Origin: Thermotogota bacterium
GTDB lineage: Bacteria > Bipolaricaulota > Bipolaricaulia > UBA7950 > UBA9294
Assembly: GCA_039679545.1 (NCBI GenBank)
Contig: JBDKUT010000018.1
Coordinates: 1 to 15,237 of the forward strand
Direction: 5' to 3'
Length of the DNA: 15,237 bases
Of the stretch, positions 2,159 through 13,697 are shown piece by piece. The notes beneath the pieces were generated by a model. The model ran no database searches. It was not told the DNA's origin and saw only the letters and a program-made list of their open reading frames with translations. The position numbers and the translations under genes were made by a program. Every line of letters begins with the position of its first letter. Within the stretch, counting starts at the first letter, position 1.

Positions 2159-3514
2159 ATGCGCGAGATCTCGCCCCTGGATGGGCGCTACGCCGACTCC
2201 GTCGGCCACCTCTCCACGTACTTCTCGGAGTTCGCCCTGATGGCGGCTCGGTGCGAGGTGGAGCTCCGATACCTCGTCGCTCTGGACGAGATCGGCGTCT
2301 TCCCGAAGCTGACTCGCGCCGAGAAAGCGCGCATCGAGGCGGCTCGGGTGCTTGCGGACGGGGACTTCGGGCGGATCAAGGAGATCGAGGCGACGATCCG
2401 CCATGACGTCAAATCGTGCGAGCTCTTCCTTCGCGAGAAGCTTGAGCTTGCACACCCGAACCGGATCCACTTCGCGCTGACGTCCGAGGACGTCAACAAT
2501 CTCGCCTACGCGCTTCTCCTGTCGCGGTACCGAGACAGGGAGCAACTGCCCCAGCTACGGCGCCTTGTCGCCGCGCTCGCCGATCGTGTGGAGCGCTGGA
2601 AGTCCGTTCCGTTCCCGGCACGAACGCACGGACAGGCGGCGTCTCCCACGACGTTCGGGAAAGAGTTGGCCGTCTTCCTCCACCGACTCGTGCGCCAGGG
2701 GCGCCAGCTCGAGGCGCTCCGGTTCCGCGGGAAGCTGTCCGGGGCGACGGGAACCTACGCCGCGGCCGTCGCGGCGCGGCCGGATGTCGACTGGATTGGG
2801 TTTGCGGAGCGGTTCGTGGCGATGCTGGGCCTGGAACCGATGGCGTGCACGACCCAGATCGACGACGGCGACGGACTGGCCGAGTACTTCGCGGTGACGT
2901 CGCGAATCAACAACATCGTCCTTGACCTCGACATCGACGTGTGGGAGTACATCTCGCGCGGCGACCTTGTGCATCGGGCCGCCTCCGGCGAGGTGGGATC
3001 GTCGACGATGCCCCATAAGGTGAACCCGATTCGGTTCGAGAACAGCGAGGGGAACTTGGCCGTATCGACGGCGCTCCTGCACGCTCTCGCCGATAAGTTG
3101 ACGCACTCCCGAATGCAGCGCGACCTCTCCGACTCGACGGCGAAGCGGAACATTGGAGTCGCCCTGGCTCACGCCTACCTTGCGCTCGAAGAGACGCTCG
3201 GCGGACTCGACCGCGTCGACCTGGACCCGGCGGAGCTGCGGGCGCGCGTCGACGCTGCTCCGGAAGTGCTTGCCGAGGCGTACCAGACGCTTCTTCGCGT
3301 CGCGGGGATGGGGGACCCGTACGAAGCCCTTCGCGGTCTCACGCGCGGGAAGACGATTACGTTGGCGGAGCTCCACGAGTGGATCGAGGGCCTGCCTGTC
3401 GACGCCAGGCTCAAGGCCCGGATGAAGGCGCTCCGTCCCTCCGCGTACGCCGGCCTCGCTCCGTCCCTGTGCGAGCGGGTGGCGGCCGAGGCCGCCGCCT
3501 GGCTGGCTGCGTAG
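2159..3514 (+). CDS. purB: Adenylosuccinate lyase (E. coli-like type, 451 aa)
   Basis: ISPLDGRY, HDVK, HFALTSEDVNN, RTHGQ, the fumarase-superfamily signature GSSTMPHKVNP and SRMQRDLSDST. ATG 2159 follows AGGAGG overlapping the guaB stop. Confidence 0.96.
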   Translation: MREISPLDGRYADSVGHLSTYFSEFALMAARCEVELRYLVALDEIGVFPKLTRAEKARIEAARVLADGDFGRIKEIEATIRHDVKSCELFLREKLELAHPNRIHFALTSEDVNNLAYALLLSRYRDREQLPQLRRLVAALADRVERWKSVPFPARTHGQAASPTTFGKELAVFLHRLVRQGRQLEALRFRGKLSGATGTYAAAVAARPDVDWIGFAERFVAMLGLEPMACTTQIDDGDGLAEYFAVTSRINNIVLDLDIDVWEYISRGDLVHRAASGEVGSSTMPHKVNPIRFENSEGNLAVSTALLHALADKLTHSRMQRDLSDSTAKRNIGVALAHAYLALEETLGGLDRVDLDPAELRARVDAAPEVLAEAYQTLLRVAGMGDPYEALRGLTRGKTITLAELHEWIEGLPVDARLKARMKALRPSAYAGLAPSLCERVAAEAAAWLAA

Positions 3515-3557: not shown

Positions 3558-3577
3558 AATGTGACATTGGTTACGTT
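3558..3577. promoter_or_regulatory. Weaker CRP/FNR-family operator-like site
   Basis: AA-TGTGA-CATTGG-TTACG-TT: perfect left half-site, 3/5 right half-site, AA/TT flanks as in the CRP consensus. Confidence 0.45.
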
Positions 3578-3602
3578 CCGATGTCGCTCGCGCGCTGCTC
3601 CA

Positions 3603-3622
3603 GGTGTGATGAAGATCACACC
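3603..3622. promoter_or_regulatory. CRP-type operator (TGTGA-N6-TCACA)
   Basis: GG-TGTGA-TGAAGA-TCACA-CC: an inverted repeat with perfect 8-bp arms, 14/16 identical to the CRP consensus TGTGATCTAGATCACA. It is intergenic, upstream of the surface-protein operon. Confidence 0.72.
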
Positions 3623-3737
3623 CCCGCTCGCCGAGGGTCACCCCTCGTTCTTCCTTTCCCAACTACTCTTAACGCGGATGGCCGCCGGCGCACCGTGCTG
3701 GCGGCAGGGGCTCTGGGTGCGTGAAGGAAGTGGTGCG

Positions 3738-4790
3738 ATGAACGATCGAACGAGGCGTTCGAGACGAAGCAGGGGAGTGCTTCTGGGGGGAGTTGCGGTC
3801 GCCGTCGTGCTGCTCGCCGGGCTGAGTGCCGCCGCCGAGGATCCGTGTCTGAAGCAGCCGGATCTGTGGTTCCCGGCGCCGGGCGTGGTCCTCTCGGGCG
3901 GCGTCACGTCGGTCCAGGAGATTTCAGGCGATGTCTGCCAAGGCGGAACCGTGACGATCACGGTCACGATCGACAACCTGAGTTGCGGGGATGCAGGCCC
4001 GTTCGACGTGACGGCCTATTGGGACAGCACCTCGCACCCGATCCAGACAAAGCACGTGGATGGGCTTCCTGGGTGTGAATTCGTGAAACTGACGTTCACG
4101 TGGGACACGGACGGAGTCCCGGCAGGGCCTCACACAATCATTGTGCGGGCCGACACCGGGTCGACCGTCGCCGAGCTCAACGAAGGGAACAACGAGTACA
4201 GGTTTGACGTTCTCATTCGCCCGAACGCACCGATGCTGGAGGCCACGAAGCAGTACATCGACGTGAACGAGGGGACGGTGAATCCCGGCGACACGGTCCG
4301 CTACGAGGTCGTGATCGTAAACGACGGCTGCATCGACCTCAAAGACGGTCCCGGCCACGAGTATACCGACGAGCTCGCCGATTTGATCGAGCCGACGGGG
4401 TACGTGCAGGCCACCCGCGGCATGATCGCCCTCGACGGGACGACGATCGTCTGGGACGGCAGCATTCCGGCGGGCGGATCGGTGACGCTCACCTACCGAG
4501 TGACGGTCGCGGAGGACGCCGAGATCGGCGTTGAGATCTGCAACCAGGGGTACGCGCATTGGGACGAGAATAGAGACGGCGCGCTGGATGCTTCGGAGCC
4601 AACGGACGATCCGACCACATCGGAGGATGACGACCCGACGTGCTTCACGGTCGACGAGCCCGTCGGGCCGATCCCGCTCTGCGGGACCATCGACGCTCCG
4701 AGTCTCTCGGGGTGGGGTGCGATTGCGCTCGGCGCACTCCTTGCGACGGCCTTCGGCTGGGCGCTTTGGCGCCGGCGGGCGGCAGCATGA
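3738..4790 (+). CDS. Secreted CARDB + DUF11 domain protein with IPTL-CTERM-like sorting signal (350 aa)
   Basis: Signal peptide (basic N-region, GVLLGGVAVAVVLLAGLSAAA). CARDB-like domain (VTITVTIDNL...ADTGSTVAELNEGNN) and DUF11-like domain (ATKQ...VNPGDTVRYEVVIVNDG...IPAGGSVTLTYRVTV). Tail APSLSGWG + TM helix + RRR. ATG 3738 follows GAAGGAAG. Confidence 0.85.
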   Translation: MNDRTRRSRRSRGVLLGGVAVAVVLLAGLSAAAEDPCLKQPDLWFPAPGVVLSGGVTSVQEISGDVCQGGTVTITVTIDNLSCGDAGPFDVTAYWDSTSHPIQTKHVDGLPGCEFVKLTFTWDTDGVPAGPHTIIVRADTGSTVAELNEGNNEYRFDVLIRPNAPMLEATKQYIDVNEGTVNPGDTVRYEVVIVNDGCIDLKDGPGHEYTDELADLIEPTGYVQATRGMIALDGTTIVWDGSIPAGGSVTLTYRVTVAEDAEIGVEICNQGYAHWDENRDGALDASEPTDDPTTSEDDDPTCFTVDEPVGPIPLCGTIDAPSLSGWGAIALGALLATAFGWALWRRRAAA

Positions 4791-5335
4791 GACAACCGAA
4801 CGAAGCGATCGAGAAAAGATACGCGGCGTCCGGACCCCGAACGCGGGGCCGTGCCGCATCGACGCTTGCCGCCGTCGTGGTGGTGGGTGGCGCGTGGATC
4901 GCGCTGCTCGTGAATGAGACAGCGCTCGGGTGGGTGCAGCGCGCCTTCGCCCTTGCAACCAGTGCCGTGCTCGGAACGCTTGGGTGTGGGACATCCGTCG
5001 TGGGGACGTCGATCGTCTCTGAGCAGTTCGGCATTTCTGTGGTCACTGCGTGCACCGGACTGTTCGCCATGGGCCTCTACTTGATCGCCGTTCTTCTCTT
5101 CCCGGCCTCGTGGCGGGCACGCCTCGCGGGCTGCGTCGGGGGTGTCTGCGTTCTGTTCGTCGTGAACGTTGTCCGCCTCGTCAGCCTCTACTACGTCGGC
5201 GTGCACTGGCCGTCTGCCTTGGATGTGGTGCACCAGGTCGTGTGGCAGTCGCTCGTCATCGCGATCGTCGTCGCCATGTGGCTCCTGTGGGCGGGACGGG
5301 CATCGCAGCGGCCCGAGCGAAGGGGAGTGTCATGA
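4787..5335 (+). CDS. xrtH: Exosortase H-like (IPTL-CTERM-specific exosortase/archaeosortase family) transpeptidase, 182 aa
   Basis: Multi-TM protein with the Cys-Arg-His triad in family context: VVTAC89TG, FPASWRAR, NVVR130LVSLYY, VVH149QVVWQ. ATGA overlap with the upstream IPTL-like substrate gene. Confidence 0.85.
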   Translation: MRQPNEAIEKRYAASGPRTRGRAASTLAAVVVVGGAWIALLVNETALGWVQRAFALATSAVLGTLGCGTSVVGTSIVSEQFGISVVTACTGLFAMGLYLIAVLLFPASWRARLAGCVGGVCVLFVVNVVRLVSLYYVGVHWPSALDVVHQVVWQSLVIAIVVAMWLLWAGRASQRPERRGVS

Positions 5336-5949
5336 ATCGGCTCGTGAAGCGCGTGGGGCGGTTCTTCCTCCTGTTCGTGCTGGCGTTGGCGGTGCTGACG
5401 CCGTTGTGGAACCTTGCGGTGCCGTACTACACCGGGCTGGTCGGCGGGGTCGCGAGGCCGCTGTTCCATGCGGTCGAGAAGGCGGACGTGACCGTCGTGG
5501 ACGCGCGGGATGGAGAGGTGTGGATCCTCCGTCGGCTCGACGGGCAGCGGGTCGCGCCGTTCTTGTACTTCGATCGATACACACTCTTCGCTGTGATCCC
5601 TCTCGTCGCCTTGTTTGTGGCGACGCCGGGTCTTGGAGGCGGACGGCGCGCGGTTCGAGCCTTGTTGGGAATTGTCTCGCTGTTCGTTTTTCAGGTGGGG
5701 TACCTCGTTGCCGCCGTCGAGCTGTCGTATGCCGCCGCAGGTCTCTCGACGTGCGGGGCGTTTCTGTCGAGAACCCTCGAGGGGTGGCAGGTGTTGGTCC
5801 GCGTCCTCTGGGAGGCCGGGCCGCTCTTGATTTGGATCGCTCTCTCGGCGAGCGCGTGGAAGCGCTTCTGGCGCGACCTCCGTTCGCCGATCGGCGTGCC
5901 CGGGGACCTTGTGCGCGAAGCGGCGCCCGCGGGCAGCGAGCGGGGGTAG
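5332..5949 (+). CDS. Exosortase-associated integral membrane protein (205 aa)
   Basis: About 4 hydrophobic helices. The segment LVALFVATPG...RR...LLGIVSLFVFQV resembles membrane proteins encoded next to exosortase H. ATGA overlap with xrtH, preceded by AGGGGAG. Confidence 0.7.
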   Translation: MNRLVKRVGRFFLLFVLALAVLTPLWNLAVPYYTGLVGGVARPLFHAVEKADVTVVDARDGEVWILRRLDGQRVAPFLYFDRYTLFAVIPLVALFVATPGLGGGRRAVRALLGIVSLFVFQVGYLVAAVELSYAAAGLSTCGAFLSRTLEGWQVLVRVLWEAGPLLIWIALSASAWKRFWRDLRSPIGVPGDLVREAAPAGSERG

Positions 5950-5971
5950 GCGGTTTGGACACAAGGGAAGG

Positions 5972-8900
5972 ATGGCTGAGGTGAAACGAGCAGGAAGGGC
6001 CGCCGCGATCGCTGTGCCACTCCTCTTGTTGCTTTGCGTCACCACCGCCTGGGCCACGGAGGCCGAGCTCTACTTCTCGACCGACAGCCACGGCGAATCC
6101 CGGGTGACCAAGGTGCGGGAGGGCGAACAGATCTGGATCGTTGTCTACGATCCCGACGAGGACATCGACTGTGATGTGCGCGACAAGGTGTGGACGGACA
6201 TCAAGGTCCTGGATGCCAAGACCGGAGCACACATTGTCTGGAAGAGCTACCTGGATTCCGGGGGAGTTGACACGAACGGCGACGGGTCAGGTGACGCCAT
6301 CTTCGGCGATACGGACTACGTTCCGTACAAGGGGCACTGGCCGGGCGACAGCGGGGGGTGGACTGGGGCGGACTACCTTGAGGAAATCGAGCGTGGCGCG
6401 GGGCTGTTCGTGAGCAGCCGCCCGTTCCAGATCGGAACCCGCGTCAAGTACTCGCACGATGGACGCGACCAGGCTCACATCGTCGGACCGTATGTGAAGG
6501 TCGGCCCCTTTGACGACACCGGCGGCGGAGCTGTCGACCCGACGGACTTCCAGTGGGGCGGCTACCTGTACGCCGCGGCCGATGACGCCCCGGAAGAGGG
6601 GGTGGGCGACGATCGAGTCTGGATCCACGGACTCTTCAGCCCTATGGACGGGCACTTGAGCTTTGTGGATGCACTCCCAATCGGGGTGGACACCGTCCCG
6701 ACCGGGTGGGAACTCCCGCTCGGGAGTGCGTACCTCCCGCCGGGGAAGAAGCTCCTTGCGGGCCAGGGGCACATGCTCGGGCGCTTCGAGAACATGGACA
6801 CGCTGGTCGGTCTCTACGCCGACCAAGACGATCCGTCCGACGTCGCCCTCGCGCTCGCGAAGATCGAGGACACCGAAGCGGAGATCCGCTGGGACGAAAC
6901 CATGTACTCGGACGGAAACGAGGCGGCGACGATCACGGTCGTCGATCCGGATGAGAACCTGAGCTGCAATGATGTTGAGATGGTTCCGATCTTCGTCATT
7001 GTGAACCCCGGATCGTGGAATTGGCAGAACGAGCCGACCAGCGCCTCGGACTTCTGGGGCCTCAACCGCTGGGGCGGGGTTGTGGACACAAACGGAGAGC
7101 CGGCGAACCAATCGCTCATCTGGTGCAACATCTATAACAGCGGTCGGTACATCGACCTGGACAGCCGTCAGCCGAACAAGGAGGGCACGTACTACATCCA
7201 CTACCCGACGGCCGGCGACAACGGGCTCGTGGCCTTCGACACGCTGAGCAATTCCGGGGTAACTCGAGTCATGTTCTACGCGACGGAGACGGGCCAGAAC
7301 ACCGGCGTGTTCGAACTGAAGCTGAACAGCATCCTGCGCGATCTCGGATTCCGCACGCTGAACGTGCGCGACGTTCTCGTCGCGTACTACCTCGATCCGA
7401 ACGACCAGGACGACTTCAAGCTTTCGGTGGCCTACATCTCCGAGAAGAAGCACAGCAGTCTTCGCTTCACGGACTACGCGCGGAACAGCCAGAGCCTCTT
7501 CTGGCTCGGCCGTGACCCCGTCTACGTCGAGGTGGTCGATGAGAACGCGAACCAAGAAGCGTGCTGTCCCGAGAGGGTTGTCGTTCAGGTCGTCGACCCT
7601 CACGAGGTGGACGACACGGAGTGGCTGATCCTGGACGAGCTGTCCAGCAACTCGTCCACCTTCTTCACGAACCAGGGAATGGAGCTCCTCTCGGTCTGGG
7701 ACGCCCTTGGGGTCGGCGATCCGGGGACGCACGGCGGCTACTCGCTCGAGCTGGACAACTGGTCGCTCGAAGCGTTCAACGAGGACTCGATCTATGTTCG
7801 GTACAACGACGTGAAGTACACCGATGCGGCGCTTGCGGGTCTTGGGGATCGAAACATCGCAACGGCGTTCCCTCCGACCATCGAAGCGGTCCGCTCGGCG
7901 AACGACGTAGCGTTCTCCGTGTTCGAAGTCGCGGACACCCAGGTCTACGACGGCTCGACGGTGCAGATGTACTTCCTCGACCGAAACGGCAACCGGGTCT
8001 CCGGCTATGCGAACAGCGACTGCGTCTTTATTGAGGTCGTCGATCCCGACCAGAACGAGGACACCATGCGGCGCGAACGCGTGGCGGCCTTTTGGGACGG
8101 GACGTCGGGCGAGGGACAGAACATCCCGCACGGCCCGATGAACTACGCCGAGAACCACCTAAATAGCTGCGGATTCCTTGACTCGAAGACGCACATCGTC
8201 AACGAGCTGCTCGGCGACACGAACATCTTCAACGCCGGTACGTGGGGCAAGATCTACATCCTGAACCCGCGGAACGGGCGCTGGGCATCCTCGGACCTGT
8301 TCGAGACGGGGACGAACGCGGGCGATTTCGTGAGCGTGTCGTGCGTGGACCTTGTCAGCCAGTACGAGTGCACGCCGTCCCTTGGCGTTCTGCCGGGCGA
8401 CACGATCCTTGCGGCGTACCAGGATCCGTCGAACCACTCGGACATCGCGTGGATCTCGATCAAGGTCTCCGTGGGCGGAACGCAGCCGGTCAAGGGCTCG
8501 ACGACGCGGTTCGTCGACGAGTTTGGAACGCCGGTCTCCGCGTACATCGAGGGCGACCTCATCTACGTTCGCGTGGACGACCCAACGCTTGCGGGTGCGG
8601 GAACGGTGCCGAATGCCGTGACCATCGACGAAGTCACGTTCGATCTCTCCCCTCTGGCCACGGCCTCCGCAGGCGCGTTCATCACCGAAGGAATCGACCT
8701 CGCCTCGGTCGGCTATGCAACAGGGGACACGGTCACGGCGACGTACGTCGATCCGGGCGATTCGAGCGACACGAGCTCGGCGTCGGTTCCGATCGTCGCA
8801 GGCGAGTTCTCCGTCGAGGAGTTCTACACGGCTCCGAACCCATTCAGCGACGTGGTCCGCTTCGCCTATCACGGCGAGGGGCTCGCGGAGACCTTCTTCG

Positions 8901-9088
8901 TCTCCGTCTACGACCTCGCCGGACACCTGGTGTGGTCGACGACGGCGAGCGACGTCCTGTCCGTGGAGTGGGACGGCCGGTCGAACGACGGGGATGCGCT
9001 AGCGAACGGCGGCTACATCTACGTCGTCCTCGCGTCCTCCGGGGAGAAGGAGTTCCCCGGGAAGGGCATCCTCTTCATCAATCGCTAG
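5972..9088 (+). CDS. Large secreted acidic surface/S-layer-like protein (~1038 aa) with five repeated beta-rich modules and a C-terminal FlgD-Ig/T9SS-CTD-like domain
   Basis: Signal peptide ending TAWA. Repeated V-x-D-P-D-x-N / E-T-G-x-N-x-G-x-F / Y-x-D-P modules. C-terminus FYTAPNPF...VSVYDLAGHLV...WDGRSNDGDALANGGYIYVV. Start is ATG 5972 or GTG 5981. Confidence 0.8.
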   Translation: MAEVKRAGRAAAIAVPLLLLLCVTTAWATEAELYFSTDSHGESRVTKVREGEQIWIVVYDPDEDIDCDVRDKVWTDIKVLDAKTGAHIVWKSYLDSGGVDTNGDGSGDAIFGDTDYVPYKGHWPGDSGGWTGADYLEEIERGAGLFVSSRPFQIGTRVKYSHDGRDQAHIVGPYVKVGPFDDTGGGAVDPTDFQWGGYLYAAADDAPEEGVGDDRVWIHGLFSPMDGHLSFVDALPIGVDTVPTGWELPLGSAYLPPGKKLLAGQGHMLGRFENMDTLVGLYADQDDPSDVALALAKIEDTEAEIRWDETMYSDGNEAATITVVDPDENLSCNDVEMVPIFVIVNPGSWNWQNEPTSASDFWGLNRWGGVVDTNGEPANQSLIWCNIYNSGRYIDLDSRQPNKEGTYYIHYPTAGDNGLVAFDTLSNSGVTRVMFYATETGQNTGVFELKLNSILRDLGFRTLNVRDVLVAYYLDPNDQDDFKLSVAYISEKKHSSLRFTDYARNSQSLFWLGRDPVYVEVVDENANQEACCPERVVVQVVDPHEVDDTEWLILDELSSNSSTFFTNQGMELLSVWDALGVGDPGTHGGYSLELDNWSLEAFNEDSIYVRYNDVKYTDAALAGLGDRNIATAFPPTIEAVRSANDVAFSVFEVADTQVYDGSTVQMYFLDRNGNRVSGYANSDCVFIEVVDPDQNEDTMRRERVAAFWDGTSGEGQNIPHGPMNYAENHLNSCGFLDSKTHIVNELLGDTNIFNAGTWGKIYILNPRNGRWASSDLFETGTNAGDFVSVSCVDLVSQYECTPSLGVLPGDTILAAYQDPSNHSDIAWISIKVSVGGTQPVKGSTTRFVDEFGTPVSAYIEGDLIYVRVDDPTLAGAGTVPNAVTIDEVTFDLSPLATASAGAFITEGIDLASVGYATGDTVTATYVDPGDSSDTSSASVPIVAGEFSVEEFYTAPNPFSDVVRFAYHGEGLAETFFVSVYDLAGHLVWSTTASDVLSVEWDGRSNDGDALANGGYIYVVLASSGEKEFPGKGILFINR

Positions 9089-9104
9089 ACACGGTGTGCA
9101 TGCT

Positions 9105-9144
9105 GGGCCGTCGGCGCCGCGAGGTTCCGACGGCCCTCTCTGTT
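9105..9144 (+). terminator. Probable intrinsic terminator of the surface-protein operon
   Basis: Perfect 10-bp stem GGGCCGTCGG (9105-9114) / CCGACGGCCC (9127-9136), inner stem closing a GCGA tetraloop, followed by a weak U tract TCTCTGTT. Confidence 0.65.
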
Positions 9145-9173
9145 GCCGTGTCCCGCTCCCGCGGGAGTAGAAT
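9143..9173 (+). promoter_or_regulatory. Possible promoter for the cyclase gene
   Basis: TTGCCG (9143-9148) and TAGAAT (9168-9173) with a 19-nt spacer (longer than ideal) that contains the palindrome CTCCCGCGGGAG. Confidence 0.35.
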
Positions 9174-9199
9174 CGGTCGGGTTCGGAGAAGGAGGCGTG

Positions 9200-10117
9200 G
9201 TGGCGAGCGGCGAGCCGTTGGCGGTGGGGTTCAGCGACCTGCGGGGGTTCTCGAGCTTCACGGCGCAACGAGGCGACGAGGCGGCGCTCGAAGTTGCGCG
9301 TGTCTTGCAGAGGCTCGTGGAGGAGCAGGTCGCGCGGAACGGCGGTCGACTCCTCAAGACCTACGGCGACGGCGTGATGACCTCGTTCGACGACGCCGAG
9401 AGCGCCATCGCGTGTTCTGCAGGAACCCAGCAGGCGTTGTCCGTCTACAACGAATCACGCGGCGACGACGCCGCCTGCGCCGGGATCGGGCTCACGTGGG
9501 GACCTGCGATTCGGACGGGCGACGACCTGTTCGGTAACTCGGTGAACCTCGCGAAGCGTCTGGCCGACGCCGCGAAGGGGTGTCAAATCGTCGTCGACGG
9601 GTCGATTGTCGAGCAGACCCACCATCGTGCAGACCTGCACTTCCGGGACCTCGGGGAGAGAGACCTCAAGGGCCTCGGCCCGTATCGTCTCTACGAGTTC
9701 GTGTGGCGGGACGAGGTCGAGAAGCTGTCGCTTGCGGACGACAGCCTCGATCTGGTCCTGACCGAAGACCACAAGCTGGTCCTGGAGTTCGCGAAGCCGC
9801 TCGAAGATACGCTCGAGGTGATCCGCGCACGGCTCGAGCCGGCGGAGGGAGAGAGGGGCGCGGTCGCGGCTCTCAAGCGTAGGCTCGCGAACCGCCTTAC
9901 GAAGGACTTGCCGAAGTGGATCTCGACCCTACAACGGTACGGAGGAGGACTGGAGCAGCGGCTGGATGGAGTTGAGGCGGAGTTCCGAGACGGAGAGCTC
10001 CGCATTCAGCTGCCCGACGGGCGCGCTCTGGCGTTCGGCCGGGGTCAGATCCGCACCGCGGACGCCCGCAGGTTCCTCGAACGGCTCGCGAGTCTGCGTG
10101 GGAAGAAGCCTGCGTAG
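9200..10117 (+). CDS. Soluble class III adenylate/guanylate cyclase with an uncharacterised C-terminal domain
   Basis: Metal-binding Asp residues (FSDLRGFS, KTYGDGVM), ATP-specifying Lys (LLKTYGD) and Asp (DLFG), transition-state Asn/Arg (VNLAKRL), and the LKGL motif. GTG 9200 follows AGGAGG (9190-9195); GTG 9197 is an alternative. Confidence 0.9.
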   Translation: MASGEPLAVGFSDLRGFSSFTAQRGDEAALEVARVLQRLVEEQVARNGGRLLKTYGDGVMTSFDDAESAIACSAGTQQALSVYNESRGDDAACAGIGLTWGPAIRTGDDLFGNSVNLAKRLADAAKGCQIVVDGSIVEQTHHRADLHFRDLGERDLKGLGPYRLYEFVWRDEVEKLSLADDSLDLVLTEDHKLVLEFAKPLEDTLEVIRARLEPAEGERGAVAALKRRLANRLTKDLPKWISTLQRYGGGLEQRLDGVEAEFRDGELRIQLPDGRALAFGRGQIRTADARRFLERLASLRGKKPA

Positions 10118-13332: not shown

Positions 13333-13337
13333 CGTCG

Positions 13338-13697
<360 letters not shown>

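Follow-up and report, generated by a model that had tools for sequence, protein, structure and literature searches.

The DNA studied here is contig C18 (JBDKUT010000018.1), a 15,237-nucleotide (nt) window from a bacterial genome of 2.35 Mb that is 93.55% complete; the named homologues of a 1038-amino-acid (aa) protein encoded in the window come from Candidatus Bipolaricaulota, which places the genome in Bipolaricaulota. Four genes of the window, encoding in order a secreted IPTL-CTERM protein, a short XrtH-like exosortase, a membrane-bound partner, and the 1038-aa large protein, form a conserved cell-envelope operon across one family of deep-branching bacteria, and we consider it very probable that a CRP-family protein activates this operon. 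Our reading of the whole, to which we assign a probability of roughly 50%, is that the operon provides a surface (S)-layer-like coat together with its IPTL-CTERM anchor, under a CRP-family activator that would probably act without cyclic AMP (cAMP) from the neighboring adenylate cyclase. The literature searched, which covered few subscription papers and no supplements, gave no description of the operon or its regulon. The features of the cassette are listed below.

3560 to 3575, no strand assigned: upstream CRP-type box with two mismatches (16.2 bits on the position weight matrix), 45 bp before box 2
3605 to 3620, no strand assigned: box 2, a perfect TGTGA-N6-TCACA and the top-scoring site of the genome, at a predicted class I activator position (center at about -63.5)
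3664 to 3669, + strand: predicted -10 element, a TAnnnT hexamer whose start lies 44 nt after box 2
3738 to 4790, + strand: 350-aa secreted IPTL-CTERM protein, the candidate anchor, with a signal peptide, CARDB and DUF11/DUF7927 immunoglobulin (Ig)-like domains, and an IPTL-CTERM-type tail
4787 to 5335, + strand: short, XrtH-like exosortase of 182 aa with invariant Cys89, Arg130, and His149; the sole exosortase match in the genome
5332 to 5949, + strand: 205-aa partner, a membrane protein with four transmembrane segments and a weak likeness to the XrtH-associated membrane protein NF041730
5972 to 9088, + strand: 1038-aa secreted, acidic, nearly all-beta protein with repeats of an Ig-like module and a C-terminal domain (CTD; residues ~944 to 1038) like those of type A cargo of a type IX secretion system (T9SS)
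9105 to 9144, + strand: terminator-like hairpin at the end of the cassette, predicted by folding; the 22 loci folded have a hairpin in the same gap

The four-gene operon and its promoter

ATGA overlaps join the IPTL-CTERM gene to the exosortase gene (4787 to 4790) and the exosortase gene to the partner gene (5332 to 5335), and 22 nt separate the partner stop (5949) from the ATG of the large gene (5972). The hairpin at 9105 to 9136 has a 10-bp stem followed by a weak T tail reaching 9144; the segment from 9095 to 9150 folds at -29.9 kcal/mol (z of -3.2), with 1 of 200 shuffles equally good, and a simple terminator scan did not list the hairpin at 9105 to 9144. A preliminary description, made from the letters of the window, had proposed a coupled four-gene cassette with these overlaps, gap, and hairpin; its coordinates hold, and the cassette is intact in all scorable relatives.

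The conservation was scored at loci with enough flanking sequence. Of the 55 GTDB loci at which an exosortase could be aligned, 34 belong to close relatives and 21 to other phyla. At the close relatives' loci the IPTL gene lies upstream in 30/30, the partner is next in 33/33, and the large gene follows in 32/32, compared with 0/18, 1/21, and 0/20, respectively, in the other phyla. The metagenome loci, for which 80 of 170 matches were listed here and in all counts below, give 72/72, 68/68, and 51/51. The 28 cassette-linked large proteins form a single group with support of 100 in a tree of 39 sequences (a quick search, rooted at the midpoint, with two distant rows across the root). Three RNA runs from the same study did not cover the cassette, and codon usage across the genome is nearly unbiased (rank 656 of 1688, with GroEL at 627), so the expression level cannot be read from codons.

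Within the window alone, matches to the box with up to two mismatches are not above chance (6 compared with a mean of 3.45; 31 of 200 shuffles reach 6), and the significance of the boxes comes from their conservation across relatives. A matrix trained on 17 boxes from nine relatives' loci places the box at 3605 first in this genome. At loci outside the training set, a box with at most one mismatch was found 60 to 260 nt upstream in 16/16, compared with 7 of 1470 control windows. In 23/26 loci the distance from a box to the start of a TAnnnT hexamer is precisely 44 nt. At least two boxes are present in 18/25 GTDB loci, and several relatives have a third one that overlaps the -10 hexamer; a promoter scan reported no sigma-70 site at the cassette. 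CRP activators of class I and class II are centered at -61.5 and -41.5, respectively. With the hexamer taken at -12, the observed box centers fall at about -63.5 for the cassette and at -41.5 for adhesin genes elsewhere in the genome. The near-consensus CRP operator that had been proposed upstream of the cassette is thus borne out by the perfect box and its upstream companion, and both the conservation across relatives and the promoter geometry support CRP-family control through these boxes.

Judged by their pattern in the genome, the boxes are part of a predicted genome-wide regulon. Half-site scoring gave 28 sites of at least 15 bits at the true spacer, compared with 2 to 12 at seven shifted spacers, and 16 of the 27 top sites are intergenic, while only ~15% of the DNA is noncoding (the gene calls used for this intergenic count were crude and put 85% of the genome in coding sequence). 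The -10 hexamer stands at +22 from a box, as in class II promoters, at two secreted adhesin genes and at +24 at the gene for a predicted outer-membrane barrel; most other intergenic sites have no -10 hexamer at such spacing.

Three further sites with CRP-type boxes were observed. Four boxes lie within 110 bp at 3141 to 3251 of contig C107, in what the crude gene calls make an intergenic region downstream of a three-gene reverse-strand cluster. On contig C99 (L259:810-910), a c-di-GMP-I riboswitch (55.2 bits) lies ~130 nt downstream of a box and precedes a gene for a 1034-aa secreted beta-helix protein, suggesting dual control of a likely adhesin. On contig C20 (L258:173-2578), an SLH protein gene is followed by a predicted barrel gene, which is preceded by a weak box (13.8 bits) and a -10 hexamer at +24; the pair resembles the split Omp-alpha/Omp-beta tether that has been reported for the phylum (10.1101/2021.05.31.446380).

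The large protein, its predicted export, and its candidate anchor

The AlphaFold2 model of the large protein, built from 149 sequences, has a pLDDT of 91.3 and is almost all beta, with repeated modules. In Foldseek, the S-layer protein of Nitrosopumilus maritimus (NmSLP) takes the first four places, with E values from 1.7e-21 to 2e-16, and the next unrelated hit is at 3.6e-10. Mature residues 464 to 806 align to NmSLP domains (Z of 11.3, root mean square deviation [rmsd] of 6.7, 228 residues aligned, 18% identity), and mature residues 916 to 1010 align to T9SS C-terminal domains at Z of 10.2 to 11.6 (for PorU, Z of 11.6, rmsd of 3.2, 93 residues aligned). The protein contains 10% Asp, compared with 5.8% in the proteome, and is poor in Lys and Arg, as are the adhesins of this genome; NmSLP is also reported to be Asp rich and Lys/Arg poor (PMC11153153). 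In the Atlas it comes closest to an archaeal cluster without a name (0.94), and the nearest named family, the SlaA-like PF28202 (0.82), is annotated on 16% of cluster members and serves as a lead only. Relatives of the protein are present in 38/41 genomes, many of them recognized by the CTD only, and two full-length-type relatives carry archaeal labels that could be binning errors. Going by the predicted fold, the large protein is probably a surface-displayed coat or scaffold.

The exosortase exceeds the family signatures TIGR04178 (49.8 bits, cutoff of 23) and PF09721 (32.3 bits, cutoff of 25.7), and C89, R130, and H149 are invariant in 11/11 exosortases aligned; Cys, Arg, and His form the suspected exosortase triad (10.1101/2023.06.07.544157). 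On the XrtH model TIGR04177 it scores 65.5 bits (cutoff of 86), and on the XrtX model it scores 78.9 bits (cutoff of 170); five orthologue fragments score 60.6 to 85.9 bits on TIGR04177, and the best of 11 members reaches an E value of 3.8e-28. The tail of the 350-aa protein, the only IPTL-type tail found in the genome, scores 17.0 bits on TIGR04174 (cutoff of 20.5); this model matches 11/11 tails, and 4/10 orthologue tails exceed the cutoff. The tail is under the hydropathy threshold used, yet it reads as a hydrophobic run followed by RRR. The partner scores 14.1 bits on NF041730 (cutoff of 35), with 3/10 orthologues matching (best, 20.7 bits). The earlier exosortase H and IPTL labels are thus a little generous: the family, the triad, and the adjacent substrate agree with them, the proposed exosortase/IPTL pairing being found at 30/30 close GTDB loci, and both the enzyme and the window tail score below the cutoffs. 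The genome's single exosortase match and single tail of this type amount to a dedicated one-to-one system. An exosortase was found in 15/24 other genomes of the family and in 4/16 genomes beyond it (20/41 overall).

The IPTL proteins at loci L044 (genome G011) and L243 are roughly double the typical length; repeats of DUF11-type domains account for this in L044. Elsewhere, a 1540-aa protein (P0182) has 12 stretches matching the module of the large protein and ends in an IPTL-CTERM tail, so that module and tail can share one chain.

With its signal peptide and C-terminal CTD fold, the large protein has the features of T9SS type A cargo. Five proteins of this genome share the CTD, and two of them are followed by barrels of the PorV/PorQ family:

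Contig C21, L253:583-7566, strand not given: CTD-bearing S8 protease, PorV-like barrel, and 1329-aa SprA-like protein, a compact T9SS-like module
Contig C2, L254:542-4637, strand not given: CTD-bearing PKD protein followed by a PorV-like barrel

The 1329-aa SprA-like gene is present in 40/41 genomes, with a PorV-like gene upstream in 20/25 loci. T9SS has been presented as a system of Bacteroidota (PMC10994853). Pfam searches of the genome for PorV, SprA_N, and C25 (PF01364) were blank; for two of them, including C25, the controls were also silent. At homologues of the large protein outside the cassette, a PorV-like gene follows directly in 10/16 loci (5 are without it and 1 is at a contig end; some matches are weak), compared with 0/58 cassette loci. 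The cassette and the PorV-like barrel are mutually exclusive neighbors of large-protein homologues.

This exclusion bears on whether the two secreted proteins might simply be independent envelope proteins under a common promoter, one an XrtH substrate and the other an adhesin exported as T9SS-like cargo, with neither lattice nor contact. Other targets of the regulon are ordinary adhesins, Ig repeats are frequent in adhesins, and paralogues of the large protein occur without the cassette. However, the large gene stands next to the partner gene at every scorable close GTDB locus and every scorable metagenome locus listed (32/32 and 51/51), cassette and barrel exclude each other as neighbors, and the cassette copies form one clade with support of 100; we regard independence as unlikely.

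A hexagonal S-layer with a lattice spacing of 6.25 nm has been reported on the sole cultured member of Bipolaricaulota, strain J31 (10.1101/2025.11.21.689855). A small subunit would fit this spacing better, raising the alternative that the IPTL-CTERM protein itself forms the lattice, as in Methylomirabilis, and that the large protein is a coregulated accessory adhesin or scaffold. The 316-aa S-layer protein reported for M. lanthanidiphila has an IPTL-CTERM tail (PMC8671808), the gene for the small protein leads the operon, and no other IPTL substrate was found. Against this, it is the large and not the small protein that resembles a solved S-layer protein, and relatives of the large protein are class-wide (38/41 genomes, many by CTD only), whereas just 20/41 genomes gave an exosortase match. 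A lattice built of the small protein thus appears distinctly improbable.

Under our preferred reading of a coat with an IPTL-CTERM anchor, a CRP-family dimer would bind the two TGTGA-N6-TCACA boxes, the proximal one at about -63.5, and, given the conserved geometry, would activate a single transcript that covers the cassette from the IPTL gene as far as the hairpin at 9105. Both secreted proteins would cross the inner membrane by Sec, as their signal peptides suggest. From what is known of the family, the exosortase, with its Cys, Arg, and His, and its partner would cleave the IPTL tail and reanchor the CARDB/DUF11 protein, while the large protein, which is without an IPTL tail, may be moved by its T9SS-type CTD through the PorV-like and SprA-like barrels. 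In the least tested step, the IPTL protein would then hold the large protein, taking the role of a dedicated PorV-like barrel in other lineages. We put this anchoring role forward tentatively, at somewhat less than an even chance. Complex prediction with the large protein (mature residues 262 to 1010, the N-terminal 261 being left out for size) and the IPTL ectodomain (residues 35 to 285) gave a score of 0.00 in both runs, a value that counts neither for nor against contact.

The candidate regulators and the neighboring cyclase

The remaining step of the model concerns the cyclase, which would be a separately transcribed neighbor gained once by rearrangement. The features that bear on it, and on the identity of the regulator, are as follows.

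9168 to 9173, + strand: predicted -10 hexamer (TAnnnT) of a separate cyclase promoter, upstream of the cyclase start
9197 to 10117, + strand: class III adenylate cyclase, a neighbor that is likely outside the operon; its C-terminal domain (residues ~170 to 306) is uncharacterized
Contig C154, 1161 to 1951, strand not given: C154 regulator, present in 41/41 genomes at 61 to 99% identity
Contig C101, 3906 to 5379, divergent: paralogous cyclase together with a lone 142-aa cyclic nucleotide monophosphate (cNMP)-binding protein; the pair is adjacent in 24/25 family genomes

The genome encodes three CRP-family proteins, here called C130, C154, and C78 after their contigs. In CRP, cAMP is contacted by E72, R82, S83, R123, T127, and S128, and DNA is contacted by R180, E181, and R185 (PMC11253593). 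A box lies upstream of the C154 gene in 26/29 scorable loci, compared with 4/30 for C130, and it spans a conserved promoter, TTGG-N17-TACAAT, an arrangement that self-repression would predict. The C154 pocket is degenerate in 30/30 orthologues (R82 to H/Y/N, R123 to E, T127 to F, and S128 to Q), and the protein has no equivalents of R82, S83, R123, T127, S128, R180, or E181; its recognition helix reads S-K-T-A-I-R. C130 keeps R180 and E181 in 30/30 orthologues, E72 in 27/30, R82 in 29/30, and R123 in 27/30, and has S83, T127, S128, and R185 replaced in 30/30. C78, judged by eye, is without E72, R82, and R180. No single CRP-family protein in this 93.55%-complete genome has both the cAMP pocket and the R180/E181/R185 helix. 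DdrI, in which the adenine contacts are replaced, is reported to bind TGTGA-N6-TCACA without cAMP (PMC11253593).

No C130 orthologue was found in 9/41 genomes, which incomplete assemblies could explain in part; in the five of these nine that were tested, the regulon is strong (91 sites, compared with 6 in the control), findings that lower the standing of C130 as the binder. No Rex, considered as another binder of the boxes, was found in the genome (the control was positive in 7/14). In all five genomes (5/5) that have both regulators, a search covering cyclases of class III alone gave no match; at the C154 gene, three of these five retain the box. The distribution thus favors C154, and helix chemistry favors C130. 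On balance, we lean slightly toward the universal C154 regulator as the protein that binds the boxes, with the R-E-helix regulator C130 as a possible second choice. Going by their residues, neither looks like a cAMP receptor, and C154, with an invariant noncanonical pocket (H-N-A, and E/F/Q in the helix), is a candidate class-wide master regulator.

The cyclase itself looks catalytically intact, as far as sequence and predicted fold can tell: D14, K54, D58, D110, N117, and R121 are invariant in 40/40 aligned sequences, and the model has the class III fold (Z of 23.2, rmsd of 1.8, 162 residues aligned to Rv1900c). We take these residues to be the two metal-binding Asp, the ATP-selecting Lys/Asp, and the Asn/Arg of class III cyclases, in the register of Ma1120. 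The earlier identification of a class III cyclase with ATP-specifying residues is upheld, and so is the earlier caveat that it appears to be separately transcribed, since the gene has its own predicted TAnnnT 22 to 50 nt before the start, behind the hairpin, in 22/22 loci.

The cyclase lies next to the large gene in 22/27 GTDB loci and 30/36 metagenome loci. This synteny is frequent, as the preliminary description anticipated, but it is confined to one nested clade: the 22 cyclase-adjacent rows form a group with support of 99 inside the 28-copy cassette clade. The six cassette rows outside it have boxes and no adjacent cyclase (five were scored directly; in the sixth, the cyclase orthologue sits in another context). 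The cyclase also travels with an unrelated ABC/patB block, both being present in 21 loci and neither in 3, and two metagenome loci have the block without the cyclase. Boxes persist at cassettes without an adjacent cyclase in 5/5 and 6/6 loci. The simplest reading of the nested adjacency and of boxes without a cyclase is a single rearrangement after the regulated cassette already existed.

The conserved cAMP module of the family appears to be the paralogous cyclase with the lone 142-aa protein, which has a canonical cAMP pocket and a C-helix and no DNA-binding domain, rather than the window cyclase. In two genomes the C130 gene and the lone gene are 2.2 kb apart and split by an opposite-strand gene, so the two are not an operon.

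The preliminary description had the neighboring cyclase supply cAMP to a CRP-family protein that switches on the cassette. In such a scheme cAMP could act on a CRP itself, or the lone cAMP-binding protein could relay it to the regulator. The cyclase is intact and usually adjacent (22/27), C130 mostly keeps E72, R82, and R123 and always R180/E181 (30/30), and the stand-alone domain has its canonical pocket and C-helix. Set against these points are the separate promoter, an adjacency of single origin that is shared with unrelated genes, boxes at cassettes lacking the cyclase (5/5 and 6/6), pairing of the lone domain with a different cyclase paralogue in 24/25 family genomes, and persistence of the regulators where no class III cyclase was found. 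The preliminary description itself named the lack of a cAMP-binding CRP homologue as a refutation, and at the sequence level this is the outcome: the two conserved CRP-family proteins were found without equivalents of T127/S128 and S83 in 30/30 orthologues each, and C154 is also without R82 and R123. Given the separate promoter, the single-origin adjacency, and the degenerate pockets, control by cAMP from the adjacent cyclase is highly doubtful; the operon is likely independent of this enzyme, and the apparent cAMP wiring is probably a neighborhood effect.

Two other features of the window were observed. The C-terminal domain of the cyclase (window positions 9700 to 10117), composed of beta strands with a helical insert, is conserved between the two paralogues and matches no known family; it had no Atlas match, and the fold search barely covered it. 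A tmRNA gene lies at 13337 to 13697 on the - strand.

Relation to known systems

Several points weigh against the reading of a CRP-activated coat with an IPTL-CTERM anchor. The likeness to S-layer protein is at the fold level only, with a whole-chain TM score of 0.15; generic Ig folds also score Z of 8 to 10, a profile search of the PDB missed the archaeal S-layer protein at E of ≤1, sequence searches found the CTD only, and the same module occurs in multirepeat proteins of 1500 to 3700 aa. The 6.25-nm spacing of J31 looks small for a 110-kDa subunit, and J31 may lack the cassette. The matches for the export machinery are far below the cutoffs (SprA NF033709, E of 1e-17 and 1.6e-8; PorV/PorQ TIGR04189, E of 6.7e-6), and five noncassette homologue loci, including the C75 paralogue of this genome, have neither barrel nor cassette adjacent. 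An exosortase was not found in 9/24 genomes of the family or in families f2, f6, and f7, which rules it out as the coat anchor of the whole phylum, and the route that would join a protein processed at the inner membrane to one exported to the surface is left unexplained. As for the regulator, the C154 helix is without R180/E181, the contacts known to read TGTGA; genome-wide box enrichment is weak in the cyclase-free genomes (44 sites, compared with 30 for a longer spacer and 16 for the reversed box); and the frequent adjacency of the cyclase (22/27), with a canonical-pocket protein present in the genome, makes indirect cAMP input possible.

The operon joins known parts in a new combination. 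It has the same three-part set as the exosortase H system (TIGR04177, TIGR04174, and NF041730), with one enzyme for one substrate and the Cys/Arg/His triad; it differs in that enzyme and partner are below cutoff, a tail-less 1038-aa fourth gene product is always attached, and the CRP-type promoter is fixed. NmSLP (PDB 8C8K to 8C8R) is the best structural match to the large protein and is likewise an Asp-rich, Lys/Arg-poor chain composed of Ig-like domains; the smaller gene for a membrane-tailed partner recalls the minor SlaB-like anchor reported with it (PMC11153153). In contrast to NmSLP, the host is a diderm bacterium, the protein has 1038 rather than 1734 aa in a different domain arrangement (hence the low TM score), a T9SS-type CTD is present, there is no detectable sequence match, and the lattice is hypothetical. 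A likeness of CARDB to SlaB, though conceivable, is not counted as evidence here.

The CTD fold is that of T9SS type A cargo (PorU 6ZA2, mirolase CTD 8QB1, and PorZ 5M11; Z of 10 to 11.6), and PorV/PorQ-family and SprA-like barrels, as in T9SS, are encoded in the genome, though by weak matches. Compared with the T9SS of Bacteroidota, the phylum is different, the SprA-like protein has 1329 aa, no C25/PorU match was obtained (with a silent control), and no barrel lies beside the cargo gene. The small protein resembles mela_00855 of M. lanthanidiphila, a small secreted IPTL-CTERM protein in a diderm; there, however, the small protein is the lattice, and the text available describes no giant partner (PMC8671808). 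Finally, the boxes and the replaced adenine contacts are like those reported for DdrI and SdrP (PMC11253593), whereas the substitutions are different and C154 also has the noncanonical helix S-K-T-A-I-R. The most detailed form of our account, with an NmSLP-like Ig canopy, compact type IX-like export outside Bacteroidota, a SlaB-like IPTL-CTERM stalk replacing an ancestral PorV-like barrel, and a class-wide, cAMP-independent CRP-family master regulator with a noncanonical helix, is rather unlikely to hold in every part.

Bipolaricaulota have been described as having a sheath with a hexagonal protein layer, the subunit of which is not named in the text available (10.1101/2025.11.21.689855), and the operon offers a concrete candidate for that subunit together with a candidate anchor. 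It would also place two sorting routes, by exosortase and by type IX-like export, in one predicted transcript. How diderm coats are held in place, and what XrtH systems do, are questions to which the apparent exchange of a barrel for an exosortase cassette is relevant. The phylum has one cultured strain, and the promoter analysis supplies it with an envelope regulon open to testing and with a candidate regulator that is highly conserved.

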